Shown here piece after piece: positions 1 through 27,750 of a DNA stretch of 27,750 nucleotides; positions within the stretch are counted from its first letter, which is position 1; every line of letters starts with the position of its first letter. The notes under the pieces were generated by a model. It saw nothing but the letters and a program-made list of their open reading frames with translations. It made no database searches and was not told the origin of the DNA. Source of the stretch: a virus; the UHGV virus genome UHGV-0085994; one strand, given 5' to 3'. Position numbers and translations under genes: made by a program.

Positions 1-53
1 TCATCGGGCATTATCTGAACATAAAACACTATCAATAAGTTGGAGTCATTACC
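1..53 (+). mobile_element. IS1 right-terminal fragment (last 53 bp of IS1; body of element lies outside the window)
   Basis: Positions 1-53 read TCATCGGGCATTATCTGAACATAAAACACTATCAATAAGTTGGAGTCATTACC, which I recognise as the 3' end of IS1 including the terminal inverted repeat; exact reverse complement is present at the other end of the window. Confidence 0.8.
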
Positions 54-324
54 AACTGATTGAAAGGGCATTGTTTACCTTACCCAGGAGTTCGCCAAAT
101 TCCCCCATCACTCTAGTAAGCCCGCGCCGCGCTTCCTCCTCCGTTGCATTCATCACAAAATGTTCAGCACTCCGCATGCTTTTAACGGGGAACGCAACAG
201 ATATCGAGTCGATATCAGGCATCCTATCGCTCAACTTTACGGTGACAATGACAGATGGCGACAGAATATTAGTGCTTACAGACAGCACTACATATTTTCC
301 GTCGATGTTGAAATCCTTTCTCAT
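49..324 (-). CDS. hypothetical protein immediately downstream of cre, C-terminally truncated by IS1 (stop codon lies inside the IS1 terminus); position corresponds to the cra/ref side of P1
   Basis: 91-aa ORF, ATG at 322-324, preceded by a C1-operator-like site at 341-357; reading frame runs into IS1 sequence at 49-53. Confidence 0.4.
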   Translation of the reverse strand: MRKDFNIDGKYVVLSVSTNILSPSVIVTVKLSDRMPDIDSISVAFPVKSMRSAEHFVMNATEEEARRGLTRVMGEFGELLGKVNNALSISW

Positions 325-340
325 ATGCCACCATAAATAT

Positions 341-357
341 CAAAAAATTAGAGCAAT
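341..357 (-). promoter_or_regulatory. C1 repressor operator-like site (13/17 match to ATTGCTCTAATAAATTT)
   Basis: Minus strand reads ATTGCTCTAATTTTTTG between cre stop and the next ORF start. Confidence 0.45.
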
Positions 358-374
358 CATTTACGTGTTAATGG

Positions 375-1406
375 CTAATTGCCATCTTCCAGCAGGCGCA
401 CCATTGCCCCTGTTTCACTATCCAGGTTACGGATATAGTTCATGACAATATTTACGTTGGTCCAGCCACCAGCTTGCATGATCTCCGGTATTGAAACTCC
501 GGCACGGGCCATATCTCGCGCGGCTCCGACACGGGCACTGTGTCCAGACCAGGCCAGGTACCTCTGTCCAGAGTCATCCTTAGCCCCGTAAATCAATCGG
601 TGAGTTGCTTCAAAAATCCCTTCTAGGGCGCGAGTTGATAGCTGGCTGGTGGGTGATGGCGAGGCAACACCATTTTTTCTGACCCGGCAAAACAGGTAGT
701 TATTCGGATCATCAGCCACACCAGAGACAGAAATCCATCGTTCGACCAGTTTAGTTACCCCCAGGCTAAGTGCCTTCTCTACACCTGCGGTGCTAACCAG
801 CGTTTTCGTTCTGCCAATATGGATTAACATTCTCCCACCGTCAGTACGTGAGATATCTTTAACCCTGATCCTGGCAATTTCGGCTATACGTAACAGGGTG
901 TTATAAGCAATCCCCAGAAATGCCAGATTACGTATATCCTGGCAGCGATCGCTATTTTCCATGAGTGAACGAACCTGGTCGAAATCAGTGCGTTCGAACG
1001 CTAGTGCCTGTTTTGCACGTTCACCGGCATCAACGTTTTCTTTTCGGATCCGCCGCATAACCAGTGAAACAGCATTGCTATCACTTGGTCGCTGCAGCCC
1101 GGACCGACGATGAAGCATGTTTAGCTGGCCCAAATGTTGCTGGATAGTTTTTACTGCCAGACCGCGCGCCTGAAGATATAGAAGATAATCGCGAACATCT
1201 TCAGGTTCTGCGGGAAACCATTTCCGGTTATTCAACTTGCACCATGCCGCCCACGACCGGCAAACGGACAGAAGCATTTTCCAGGTATGCTCAGAAAACG
1301 CCTGGCGATCCCTGAACATGTCCATCAGGTTCTTGCGAACCTCATCACTCGTTGCATCGACCGGCAATGCAGGCAAATTTTGGTGTACGGTCAGTAAATT
1401 GGACAT
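375..1406 (-). CDS. cre: Cre site-specific tyrosine recombinase (P1 Cre, near-identical)
   Basis: 343-aa translation matches the P1 Cre sequence as I recall it, with a few substitutions (e.g. C-terminus LEDGN); loxP lies about 420 bp upstream. Confidence 0.98.
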   Translation of the reverse strand: MSNLLTVHQNLPALPVDATSDEVRKNLMDMFRDRQAFSEHTWKMLLSVCRSWAAWCKLNNRKWFPAEPEDVRDYLLYLQARGLAVKTIQQHLGQLNMLHRRSGLQRPSDSNAVSLVMRRIRKENVDAGERAKQALAFERTDFDQVRSLMENSDRCQDIRNLAFLGIAYNTLLRIAEIARIRVKDISRTDGGRMLIHIGRTKTLVSTAGVEKALSLGVTKLVERWISVSGVADDPNNYLFCRVRKNGVASPSPTSQLSTRALEGIFEATHRLIYGAKDDSGQRYLAWSGHSARVGAARDMARAGVSIPEIMQAGGWTNVNIVMNYIRNLDSETGAMVRLLEDGN

Positions 1407-1413
1407 TTGACAC

Positions 1414-1635
1414 TCAGATAATGGTTTTAAGTAAAGTGTACAGGATCGGCTCTGCCTTTACCTGTTTATGGTTCTCGTCATAGAAACGCCAACGACCGCG
1501 ACTGCGTTCTATCTTTTCTTCACCGCGCGATAATGACAGTTGACAACTATCACGATCAAACCCTTTTGCCCGCCAGTAACCACGATTTTTCTCAAGCTCA
1601 AGATGAGTGGACACTTTAGCAGCTGAATATCCCAT
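1414..1635 (-). CDS. small hypothetical ORF between loxP and cre (73 aa); may be non-coding cre leader
   Basis: ORF with strong Shine-Dalgarno (AGAGGTGA, then ATG); ends 8 bp before cre start; no recognisable domain. Confidence 0.25.
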   Translation of the reverse strand: MGYSAAKVSTHLELEKNRGYWRAKGFDRDSCQLSLSRGEEKIERSRGRWRFYDENHKQVKAEPILYTLLKTII

Positions 1636-1730
1636 TTTTCACCTCTGATTGATTGGTGGTGCTAAGTGCGCTACGCGAAATCTGGAGCATTAACACTGCC
1701 AACATTTCGCAGATTTTACGTAGCGCAACC

Positions 1731-1754
1731 TTGATCAAATGATCAAGTGATCAC
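1731..1754. promoter_or_regulatory. cluster of three Dam (GATC) sites as TGATCA hexamers at 8-bp spacing in the cre upstream region
   Basis: TGATCA at 1732-1737, 1740-1745, 1748-1753, plus another at 1801-1806; P1 cre promoters are known to be Dam-methylation sensitive. Confidence 0.5.
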
Positions 1755-1824
1755 TATTTGACCTGATAAGGTATTGAACTGTATGGATTTACAGCTAAAT
1801 TGATCATGTTCAATAACCCTTAAT

Positions 1825-25941: not shown

Positions 25942-25951
25942 ATCAGCCCCC

Positions 25952-26518
25952 TCACTTCAACATGGATGAGAAAAGAACAATTCCCGGGATAATTGCCCTT
26001 GTTGCGCTCATTTTCTCTTCCAGATCCAGCTTCCGCTGATACAGCGTGTTCTCTTCGGATAAATTGCTGGCATCGAGTTTCCCCGCGATAGATATTCTTC
26101 GCAGGCGATCAGTGTTAGGTATCGCGATTAGCACTTCCAGATAGTCAGAAAGTAACCCAATGATTTCAGGTGGCACTTCTCCATTATCCAGATCCATATC
26201 ACGCAAATTAGCCAGATATGACACATTCAGTGGGTATACCGCTCGATGGGTATCTTCAAGCTCGATATTCCCATCGTAAACGTCGGAGTAGACAAGATCG
26301 CCGGTGTGATCTGTAACCGATACGAGCGCAAGAAAATCAGCAGGGCAAGCAAGTGATTTACTGGCCTGATCAGTGAAGCGTATCCGCTTGATGTGCCCCG
26401 CTCTATCCTGGTAGGTTCCCAATGCTTTTCTTAGCAGGGATTCCAGTAAGGCAGGTTCATCCGCAATCAAAGGTGTGAAGCGGGATTTGACGTCTTCGAG
26501 TAATTGTCGTGGTGTCAT
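25952..26518 (-). CDS. hypothetical phage structural/morphogenesis protein
   Basis: 188 aa; first gene of the tail operon; GAGG Shine-Dalgarno. Confidence 0.5.
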
Positions 26519-26524
26519 TGAAAC

Positions 26525-26559
26525 CTCGTAGAATCTGGTGTGTTAACCGATTCTACGAG
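26525..26559. repeat. 11-bp perfect inverted repeat (CTCGTAGAATC / GATTCTACGAG, 13-bp spacer) immediately upstream of the tail operon RBS
   Basis: Directly visible; could be a protein-binding site or 5'-UTR hairpin. Confidence 0.5.
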
Positions 26560-26671
26560 TAGTCATTTGTTCATTGAGTAGGAATATTGTTGTCTGGGGG
26601 GTAATCAGTGTAGGTGGAATGAGGGATATGATATGGTTATCACATAATCAGGTTGTTTTGAGTAAAACAAT

Positions 26672-26698
26672 AAAACGCCCTTTAATGGGCGTTTTTTT
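26672..26698. terminator. rho-independent terminator (hairpin AACGCCC-TTTAAT-GGGCGTT plus T7), bidirectional context
   Basis: Directly downstream of the 270-aa minus-strand ORF. Confidence 0.6.
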
Positions 26699-26727
26699 AA
26701 AACTTAAATTGACTATCCTTTCAAATA

Positions 26728-27540
26728 CTATTTTAATTCTATGTAATTTTTAAATTCTCCCTCATATTTATACATGATGCTATCAAATCCTTCCATTACA
26801 TCAACGAATTGTTGTGAACATTCCGGCTTCCAAGGCGTACACTTACGAACCATATCCATTTTTTTCTTATCCTTCGTTGTATCGACTAAGGATAGGTACC
26901 CTATAAAATTCATCATCTGAACAGGATCTTGATTTGTGAATATATATTTGACGTTTTGCTTAGTAGGCGAAAAAGAATCAAAAGCAGGGAACATATATTC
27001 ACCAGAAAAAGAGAGTGCAGCATCAATGACGTCTGTTGCAGGAGTGCAGTTGCTCAGAATTGGCACTAAGCTAAAATTAGCACCTGAGCACACTGCATAT
27101 ATATCATCCCCTTTTTTTAGTTTTAACAGAGAGTCTTGCTTTGAATCCAATATTTTCAATTTGATATAATTTAGTGGCGTTGCATTTTCCCCTGGAGTAA
27201 ATAACTCTACAATTGGTTTATTATTCACCATTCTTATGGATTTTATTTCACCATACACAATTGGAATTGTGTTCCATTTTTCCTGAGCAGCAAATTCATT
27301 ATCTTTAAAATCATTAACCAACTCAGATGGCAAATGATAACCAAATTGATTGTTCATTGCTTTCGAAGCAAATCCAGACAAATAGAATGCCCTTACTAAA
27401 TCATAATCTTTCTTTGAGGTAGAAAGCCAATCTGGCAATTTATTATCAGCTATCGCGCTTCCAGCAAAAATAGCACAACAAAATGTTATTACATTAAATA
27501 ATTTCATTTTCCATTCACTCATTAATCGGTTTAAACTCAC
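26728..27540 (-). CDS. hypothetical secreted/periplasmic protein (N-terminal signal peptide), AT-rich cargo gene
   Basis: 270 aa; hydrophobic signal MKLFNVITFCCAIFAGSAIA; region strongly AT-rich compared with the phage backbone. Confidence 0.55.
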   Translation of the reverse strand: MSLNRLMSEWKMKLFNVITFCCAIFAGSAIADNKLPDWLSTSKKDYDLVRAFYLSGFASKAMNNQFGYHLPSELVNDFKDNEFAAQEKWNTIPIVYGEIKSIRMVNNKPIVELFTPGENATPLNYIKLKILDSKQDSLLKLKKGDDIYAVCSGANFSLVPILSNCTPATDVIDAALSFSGEYMFPAFDSFSPTKQNVKYIFTNQDPVQMMNFIGYLSLVDTTKDKKKMDMVRKCTPWKPECSQQFVDVMEGFDSIMYKYEGEFKNYIELK

Positions 27541-27709
27541 TAATTAATTCACCAAGACTATTTGGGTATGCTTTATAAATAACATACTCCGAAGAGCCAT
27601 CTGAATATTGGTAAGCCCCATAACAGATCAGTTTATTTATTCCTTTCTGAATAGTTTTTTGATTATAAGAATCAACCACTGTTATTCCATATGACGGTAA
27701 TGACTCCAA
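27515..27709 (-). CDS. hypothetical ORF fragment, 5' end disrupted by IS1 (only in-frame start is a TTG inside the IS1 terminus)
   Basis: 64-aa ORF with no internal Met; its 3' end overlaps the start of the 270-aa gene. Confidence 0.3.
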   Translation of the reverse strand: MESLPSYGITVVDSYNQKTIQKGINKLICYGAYQYSDGSSEYVIYKAYPNSLGELISEFKPINE

Positions 27710-27750
27710 CTTATTGATAGTGTTTTATGTTCAGATAATGCCCGATGACT
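27696..27750 (-). mobile_element. IS1 right-terminal fragment (55 bp), inverted relative to the copy at 1-53
   Basis: GGTAATGACTCCAACTTATTGATAGTGTTTTATGTTCAGATAATGCCCGATGACT, recognised as the IS1 terminus. Confidence 0.8.

Follow-up and report, generated by a model that had tools for sequence, protein, structure and literature searches.

A P1-like plasmid prophage fragment from the human gut, probably disabled for lytic growth by a 934-bp lpa-pac-pacA deletion and an IS26 break

The 27,750-bp virus genome UHGV-0085994 (this whole stretch is called the window here) holds orthologues of phage P1 genes, some whole and some broken, and it raises the question of whether such an element can still act as a phage and, if not, what disabled it. 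It is likely to be P1-like (Punavirus) plasmid prophage DNA from an Escherichia-type host of the human gut. A first-pass annotation, made from the sequence alone, took it for a decaying or defective P1-like element and proposed erosion driven by insertion sequences (IS). The first part of that reading stands, as lpa, pacA, sit and the pac site are all destroyed. The second part fails as the main mechanism: it is right for the truncations of sit, pmgP, c8 and simB alone, the lpa/pac/pacA and coi lesions being independent of any IS. We conclude that the window probably represents a lytically disabled fragment of a P1-like plasmid prophage, put out of action by a 934-bp deletion and an IS26 break.

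Small deletions and an IS26 junction

P1 (NC_005856) served as the reference, with a base-level map by blastn and a gene-by-gene check by tblastn. The tally of intact against disrupted P1 orthologues, proposed in the first-pass annotation as a check, came to 19 intact (85-100% amino acid identity: cra, cre, c1, pacB, pdcB, pdcA, doc, phd, humD, hot, pap, pmgS, pmgR, pmgQ, ppp, pmgB, tub, pmgC and simC) and seven damaged (c8, coi, lpa, pacA, pmgP, sit and simB), the latter including three essential lytic genes. The most disabling lesion, the lpa-pac-pacA deletion, and the coi frameshift are small deletions that involve no IS; coordinates of these and all other features are collected in Table 1.

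The larger of the two is a single clean deletion of 934 bp (P1 90164-91097; junction at window 7233/7234) with a 2-bp 'TA' microhomology. Lost with it are the last 60% of lpa (3' side), the LPpac promoter, the entire pac site (annotated in the P1 record with cleavage positions P1 90804-90811) and the first 47% (5' side) of pacA, the gene of a terminase subunit. What is left of lpa runs, after codon 57, out of frame into the middle of pacA. What had first been described as a split pacA gene without a pac cluster is therefore not a split gene; its upstream 'half' is the lpa stub. The missing pac cluster had been seen correctly: no pac hexamer cluster occurs in the window, and the sole TGATCA cluster there, at 1732-1801, consists of the Dam sites in the control region of cre. 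The AlphaFold model of Lpa has a predicted local distance difference test score (pLDDT) >90 for residues 17-97 and a predicted winged-helix fold, with helices at residues 20-30, 36-46 and 54-66 and a beta wing at 70-88; its structural matches are weak (best E = 0.018) and are uniformly winged-helix regulators. Since the break at residue 57 cuts the predicted recognition helix of this model, the Lpa' stub is very unlikely to bind DNA. As an aside on the same protein, Lpa homologues mostly begin, in alignment, at the second methionine (P1 residue 11), and residues 1-13 are predicted to be disordered; the annotated 150-residue P1 Lpa may be 10 residues too long at its N-terminus.

The 34-mer spanning the deletion junction recurs, base-identical, in a different sample, Logan SRR31599358 (locus L008), whose backbone shows 83 differences from the window over 4.7 kb, carries lxr and lacks the ant/icd insert. 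A 638-bp contig of ENA ERZ1742652 also runs across the deletion and is identical to the window. The junction was not found in 655 PLSDB P1-like plasmids, nor was the 34-mer found in GTDB representatives or IMG/VR. The deletion is common to at least two diverged backbones, through descent or recombination, and is not an assembly artefact.

The frameshift in coi, the gene of the C1 inactivator, was recognized as such in the first-pass annotation and results from an 11-bp deletion that brings a stop at codon 48. An intact 69-codon coi is present in P1, in vB_EcoM-673R5, in an Escherichia fergusonii plasmid and in more than 30 other loci, and the 11-bp deletion has been seen in this contig only.

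The truncation of sit had likewise been noticed, and its cause, an IS26 that also cuts pmgP, had been omitted. This IS26 has perfect 14-bp terminal repeats and an intact transposase. The 8-bp direct target duplication of a simple insertion is absent (flanks cgtggttc vs aataacct), and the P1 flanks lie in opposite relative orientation, with P1 coordinates falling along the window to 80626 and then, after the IS26, rising from 41240. Because a deletion would have left the P1 flanks collinear, the junction is an inversion junction, and it splits both sit and pmgP. Inversion conserves DNA. Inversions by IS26 arise either by intramolecular replicative transposition in inverse orientation or by recombination between inverted IS26 copies (pTZ20_1P, PMC6906374). 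The chimeric Sit' product (1055 residues) is found on 4-6 public contigs, and the IS26-sit' fusion together with a 6.5-kb flank is 100% identical in Logan SRR28206348. Neither the deletion junction nor the IS26 junction occurs in phage, PLSDB or complete E. coli genome records. An analogous flip lies at another position in a complete IncY plasmid of E. fergusonii.

Lytic capacity of the element

A genome-wide CRISPR interference map of P1, together with older amber data, marks lpa, pacA, pacB, sit, pmgB, tub and pmgC as essential for plaques, with efficiencies of plating <1e-5 to 1e-7 on knock-down and with amber mutants available, and marks pmgP, simB, simC, coi, ppp, pap, pmgQ and pmgS as non-essential (PMC10695390). 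Of the four truncations caused by an IS (c8, simB, sit and pmgP), that of sit alone strikes an essential gene. The window holds no full-length Lpa, no pac with a whole PacA (PacB is intact) and no complete sit; as for a full set of tail and head genes, sit is truncated and most of the other structural genes lie outside the contig. Because three essential functions (lpa, pacA, sit) and the cis-acting pac are lost, an autonomous lytic cycle is not expected, and established P1 genetics makes it very likely that the element of the window is unable to complete the lytic cycle alone.

Lpa activates all 11 P1 late promoters, and without it none of them would fire; without PacA and pac, DNA would be neither cleaved nor packaged; and without full-length Sit, no tails would form. 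The element would then persist only vertically or through mobilisation, as a plasmid or a cointegrate. Such persistence would be aided by Cre/loxP multimer resolution, by C1 and C4-icd-ant immunity and by SimC exclusion, all intact, and further by Phd-Doc addiction, by HumD and Hot, and by a type I restriction-modification system of the EcoR124 type. In the P1-like family, losing the pac region would be a recurrent route and probably a favoured one, in that it removes the risk of lysis or of cleavage at pac.

Four points weigh against this reading. (i) Lpa, PacA and Sit could come in trans from an intact P1-like phage resident in the same host, with pac still missing in cis. (ii) The window covers only a part of its element, and a plasmid prophage and a fragment within another replicon both fit. 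(iii) A count of lesions overstates the damage, in that c8, coi, pmgP and simB, four of the seven genes hit, are either dispensable for plaques or untested in this respect. (iv) No truncated-PmgP cluster representative breaks at residue 158, as the reciprocal IS26 junction would; because that junction was not found, inversion as opposed to secondary loss is unproven.

The strongest rival, and the strong form of the first-pass erosion idea, is that nothing of P1 survives beyond the 27.6-kb segment. The segment would then be an IS1-bounded remnant within a conjugative-plasmid cointegrate or a chromosome, the P1 replicon and most structural genes having been lost. We consider this possible but rather doubtful. 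The c8 and simB genes adjoin the same end of IS1 (IRR, the right inverted repeat), so the two IS1 copies are mutually inverted, as in a composite element, and P1-derived plasmids that lack the P1 replicon have been documented (PMC10879196). Furthermore, both IS1 junctions join P1 backbone to foreign DNA in public elements (CP055919.1, CP056412.1 and NZ_CP034659.1). At the first border, the exact 91-residue C8' product is found on at least 21 public contigs, and the c8'::IS1 junction is thus shared; in CP055919.1 (a 274-kb plasmid), JABXQJ010000004.1 and CP056412.1 (a 5.1-Mb chromosome) it leads on to an IS1-bounded cargo with the lac operon. Two of these three are 100% identical to window 1-2125. 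Lpa (150 residues) and coi are intact in all three, and PacA is full length (397 residues) in CP055919.1 and truncated to 366 residues beside an IS26 in CP056412.1, with no pacA region within the stretch examined of JABXQJ010000004.1. At the other border, E. coli ATCC 98082 has a 454-kb IncHI1B + IncY cointegrate, NZ_CP034659.1, that carries the simB'::IS1 junction at 100% identity; the IS1 after simB' leads there into corA, malT and IncHI1B conjugative-plasmid DNA. RCS47 was considered as another carrier of c8'::IS1 and rejected, its match to the start of the window being to an IS1 elsewhere in its cargo.

These same relatives speak against a remnant, because the rest of the P1 backbone is still present elsewhere on the molecule, including the IncY replicon in NZ_CP034659.1. 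So does the IS26 junction, which is of the DNA-conserving type. In addition, any IS1 copy breaks a short-read assembly, and the borders say nothing about the DNA beyond. The window is 100% identical to contig k127_395 (27,894 bp) of ENA ERZ909642 minus 72 nt at each end, a match made by looking up the exact sequences of the chimeric products Sit' and Lpa'; the contig comes from a short-read MEGAHIT assembly of a human gut metagenome (run ERR688562, PRJEB7774). Both of its ends stop ~125-127 nt within IS1, a length equal to the k-mer size of the assembler, as is typical where an assembly graph breaks at a repeat. The DNA past the borders is unassembled because the contig breaks at these IS1 repeats. 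Hence the two border genes that the first-pass annotation had called disrupted by IS1 are indeed truncated, with borders that are assembly breaks. A survey of 77 P1-like phage-plasmids found res-mod (beside c8) and simABC to be highly variable regions (PMC9603915); the IS1 borders, older and shared, lie at known variable cargo sites. By analogy with the relatives, IS1 may link P1 backbone to foreign DNA in the window too. An IS1 at the c8 and simB sites does not show that the remaining P1 was lost.

The absence of repA and parAB had also been offered as a sign of erosion. They are truly absent from the window; however, the P1 intervals represented there (80.6-94.8, 0-1.8 and 41.2-47.8 kb) exclude repA/parAB, which map at 59.0-62.6 kb, even in wild-type P1, so their absence is no evidence of erosion. 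The case calls for caution: contig ends that lie in IS copies, and expected map positions, should be checked before missing genes are read as eroded.

We think it very improbable that the element is still a working temperate phage whose lesions are tolerated or compensated by intact copies in the same genome. Metagenomes can contain several P1-like elements, and c8, coi, pmgP and simB are dispensable or untested for plaques, yet P1 cannot do without any of lpa, pacA and sit (PMC10695390), pac acts in cis and is deleted here, pacA is conserved at full length among 54 bona fide P1-like phage-plasmids (PMC9603915), and the deletion junction occurs in 0/655 of the PLSDB P1-like plasmids. That metagenome assembly itself created the lesions (through a chimeric join at IS26 and collapsed or skipped stretches of 934 and 11 bp) is scarcely credible, despite the short-read MEGAHIT source, the proneness of a multi-copy repeat such as IS26 to chimeric joins and the confinement of the coi deletion to this contig, since the IS26-sit' fusion or the deletion junction recurs in the independent assemblies SRR28206348, ERZ1742652 and SRR31599358, the last with a diverged backbone.

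Pac-removing deletions in related plasmids

The lpa-pac-pacA deletion of the window has parallels among public P1-like plasmids. The 90% cluster with Lpa' holds many truncated Lpa proteins with differing tails, and base-level junctions reveal nested microhomology deletions, at least five others besides that of the window, all of which remove pac (loci L023, L030, L036, L039, L042-L044 and L008, together with window 7233). On the left they end within a stretch of ~24 bp (lpa nt 161-184); on the right they reach anywhere from mid-pacA to within ant. The deletions run (i) from lpa nt 161 to pacB nt 689, and then from pacB nt 762 to ant nt 816 (P0003; 1211 collection blocks and 27 complete E. coli genomes); (ii) from lpa nt 184 to pacB nt 662 (P0004; 322 blocks and one complete genome); (iii) from lpa nt 183 to icd nt 15 (P0014; 73 blocks); (iv) from lpa nt 183 to ant nt 400 (P0005; 45 blocks); (v) from lpa nt 183 to pacA nt 1175 (P0007); and (vi) from lpa nt 173 to pacA nt 570, in the window and L008 (5-7 contigs). 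One further locus (SQNK01000222.1) has a lesion of another type: it has lost pac through a 540-bp deletion within pacA (nt 136 to 676, 'CA' microhomology), with lpa intact. Among complete E. coli genomes, 547 of the 651 records matching P1 90050-91150 keep the region intact, and ~16% have a lesion.

Lineages (i) and (ii) are represented by AP025216.1 and CP145664.1. Such sister lineages resemble the window in their left end at lpa nt 161-184, in the removal of pac, and in keeping pdcB-doc-phd on one side and c1-cre on the other; they differ in that their right ends lie in pacB, icd or ant, and their deletions are larger (2.2-4.5 kb) and far commoner than that of the window.

We tentatively suggest, as a conjecture more apt to fail than to hold, a site-preferred 'grounding' pathway, in which independent microhomology deletions start from lpa nt 161-184 and extend rightward for 0.9-4.5 kb, always removing pac. 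About 18 of the 21 distinct junction-type truncations that keep the Lpa N-terminus break in residues 47-64, and three break in residues 65-150; using only the list retrieved with full-length Lpa, ~9/14 breaks fall in that stretch. The retrieval of truncated Lpa proteins was incomplete and, owing to length clustering, biased, which leaves the hot spot suggestive and not proven. If the pathway is real, phage-plasmids have repeatedly been converted to plain plasmids, some of the resulting lineages being very common; and if the left ends cluster because of a specific break or pause site, and not through sampling or selection, the transition from phage to plasmid would be mechanistically predictable.

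Several candidate causes of the clustering were examined, and none gained support. (i) No Chi site lies at the endpoints, although three co-oriented Chi sites lie ~800 bp to the left, in pdcB. (ii) No boundary between diverged backbone alleles was found. (iii) For escape from type I CRISPR-Cas3, a search of 5,426 E. coli genomes gave no spacer-like chromosomal match to P1 90050-91150. (iv) The stretch lpa nt 161-184 lies around an inverted repeat, TAAGCGC-N11-GCGCTTA, and the hairpin is unremarkable in stability (z = -1.84; 9/200 shuffles fold as well). (v) The boundary of a functional or dominant-negative Lpa N-domain is rejected, as the breaks fall inside the predicted winged-helix domain. 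(vi) For a site-specific recombinase or a restriction site, TA-type microhomology is all that the partner sites have in common, with no longer motif. The pdcB Chi sites (GCTGGTGG; P1 88936, 89104 and 89361, window ~8030-8460) are oriented such that they would halt RecBCD arriving from the pac side; no opposite-strand Chi occurs within P1 88.8-93.3 kb.

A second coi lesion was met in the lineage deleted from lpa nt 183 to icd nt 15: in L036 and L038 (7496-7722) an independent 17-bp insertion frameshifts coi, which is intact in their sibling L037. This fits relaxed selection on lytic-switch genes once the lytic cycle is lost. The recurrence of pac-removing deletions, with their clustered end in lpa, and the ~16% lesion rate could matter for how phage-plasmids become plasmids, and also for the typing of P1-like elements in resistance surveillance and for predicting their ability to transduce.

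Backbone, restriction locus and relatives

The best database matches by megablast are Punavirus phages and IncY plasmids, at 95-98% identity, and the window is not found in one piece in any single record of a phage, of PLSDB or of a complete E. coli genome. The P1 backbone falls by blastn into five collinear blocks, ~20 kb in all, at 95-98% identity.

Table 1. Blocks and features of the window. Identities are to P1 unless stated; aa, amino acids; nt, nucleotides; ORF, open reading frame; a prime marks the truncated side of a gene.
Feature	Window position	Strand	P1 position	Remarks
Block: c8', cre, cra, half of lox	54-1841		1788..1	
Block: lox, coi, c1	1842-3399		94800..93232	
Block: ant/icd module	3440-4739			64-81% identical to P1 immI
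Block: pacB + 3' part of pacA	5128-7234		93204..91098	divergent allele, 85% identity
Block: lpa', pdcB, pdcA, doc, phd, humD	7233-9861		90163..87534	
Block: hot	9926-10153			
Block: hsdMSR	10514-16459			replaces P1 pmgT-upfO
Block: pap, pmgS, pmgR, pmgQ, ppp, 'pmgP	16535-20391		84482..80626	
Block: IS26	20392-21211			820-bp non-P1 insert
Block: sit', pmgB, tub, pmgC, simC, 'simB	21212-27701		41240..47759	opposite relative orientation
IS1 end	1-53	-	22678-22626 (IS1)	terminal 53 nt, insB side, IRR; 98% identical
c8'	55-324	-		residues 1-90 of 103, 3'-truncated by IS1
cre	375-1406	-		intact, 343 aa, 98.8% identical
cra	1414-1635	-		intact
loxP	1825-1858			perfect 34-bp site, exact match
coi pseudogene	2240-2438	+		11-bp deletion (TCAGGAGTACC) after 2358; premature stop ending 2383
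c1 repressor	2549-3400	+		intact, 283 aa, 98.9% identical
Second immunity-I-like module	3433-5031	-		between c1 and pacB
ant antirepressor	3433-4548	-		371 aa; KilAC + ORF6N domains (Pfam)
icd-like gene	4545-4766	-		
C4 antisense RNA	4821-4908	-		Rfam 75.4 bits, above gathering score
isrK-like RNA	4953-5031	-		Rfam 60.2 bits, above gathering score
pacB	5126-6610	-		full length, 494 aa; 88% aa, 85% nt identity
'pacA remnant	6610-7233 (ORF 6610-7278)	-		PacA residues about 190-397 (180-397 for the ORF); residues 1 to ~189 deleted
lpa'	7184-7405	-		codons 1-57 of 150 + 16 out-of-frame codons
pdcB, pdcA, doc, phd	7494-9350	-		all intact, 96-100% aa identity
humD	9423-9812	-		intact
hot	9911-10162	-		intact
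hsdM	10514-12076	+		type IC (EcoR124 family)
hsdS	12073-13221	+		
hsdR	13343-16459	+		
pap, pmgS, pmgR, pmgQ, ppp	16724-20257	-		intact
'pmgP	20242-20391	-		residues 159-208 only, cut by IS26
IS26	20392-21211	-		820 bp; terminal repeats GGCACTGTTGCAAA
sit' (tape measure / transglycosylase)	21194-24352	-		residues 1-1063 of 1140, cut by IS26
pmgB, tub, pmgC, simC	24434-27522	-		intact, 98-99.6% identical; block inverted vs P1 map
'simB	27518-27695	-		residues 49-111, cut by IS1
IS1 end	27696-27750	+		terminal 55 nt, IRR

The gene order and the perfect loxP are those of P1 and the P1-like phage-plasmids (Punavirus, P1 subgroup 1: RCS47, SJ46, JL22). The groups c8-cre-lox-coi-c1, pdcBA-doc-phd-humD-hot, pap-pmgSRQ-ppp and sit-pmgB-tub-pmgC-simC match at 95-98% nucleotide identity, and pacB is also collinear. 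Unlike functional P1, the window lacks functional lpa, pacA, pac, sit and coi, bears the IS26 inversion, and has IS1 in c8 and simB. The backbone is mosaic, the terminase segment (pacB and 3' pacA) being only 85% identical to P1 against 96-98% in the adjoining blocks; this divergent allele is also that of E. fergusonii p22C037LT2 and of L008. RCS47 and many plasmids share with the window the extra C4-icd-ant module between c1 and pacB, which P1 does not have at that position and which is absent from L008. Between humD and hot (window 9862-10513) lxr is missing, and a 71-codon ORF at 10165-10380 (minus strand) has no Pfam match.

The immunity and maintenance genes c1, cre and phd/doc are full length and 98.8-100% identical to P1. 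The first-pass annotation was right that phd-doc and hsdMSR remain intact. Phd (73/73 residues, 100%) and Doc (126 residues, 99.2%) are encoded by adjacent, full-length genes. HsdR and HsdM match the EcoR124 sequences of the PDB over 1038/1038 residues (2292 bits, including the EcoR124_C domain) and 520/520 residues (1157 bits), respectively, and the order hsdM-hsdS-hsdR with these two subunits points, on similarity, to a type IC locus. The 382-residue HsdS resembles that of EcoR124 in its N-terminal half only (residues 1-222); because its second target-recognition domain is unrelated, its recognition specificity probably differs from that of EcoR124. The exact HsdS protein is found on 34 public contigs. 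Like other type IC loci with P1 flanks (EcoR124I/II, EcoDXXI), the locus lies between a hot/humD side and a pap side, and the annotation of the P1 record describes both of these flanks as homologous to those of the EcoDXXI and R124 hsd loci.

P1-like phage-plasmids are known to turn into plain plasmids by gene loss, keeping phd/doc and cre and often with the involvement of transposable elements (Pfeifer & Rocha 2024, PMC10879196), and the window, with many P1 homologues, key phage functions depleted and phd/doc and cre kept, resembles these defective P1-derived plasmids. Such elements are already catalogued and the window is one more example, albeit a clean one, of the loss of single functions essential to lytic growth (Lpa, pac/PacA, Sit) with addiction, immunity, exclusion and restriction kept. 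IS26 inversions and deletions, and type I restriction-modification loci that replace pmg genes, are also on record for P1-like backbones (Venturini 2019, PMC6906374), for example in pTZ20_1P, where, as in the window, the IS26 inversions have non-matching flanks. The combination of lesions in the window was not found in PLSDB, complete E. coli genomes, GTDB representatives or IMG/VR, and the window itself contains no relaxase, oriT or resistance gene.

Finally, the record of vB_EcoM-673R5 (ON470615.2), deposited as a complete phage genome, annotates pacA, hsdM, hsdR and c1 in pieces (Pac1/Pac2, HsdR1/HsdR2 and a 192-nt 'C1'), which suggests frameshift sequencing errors in the record, not biology.

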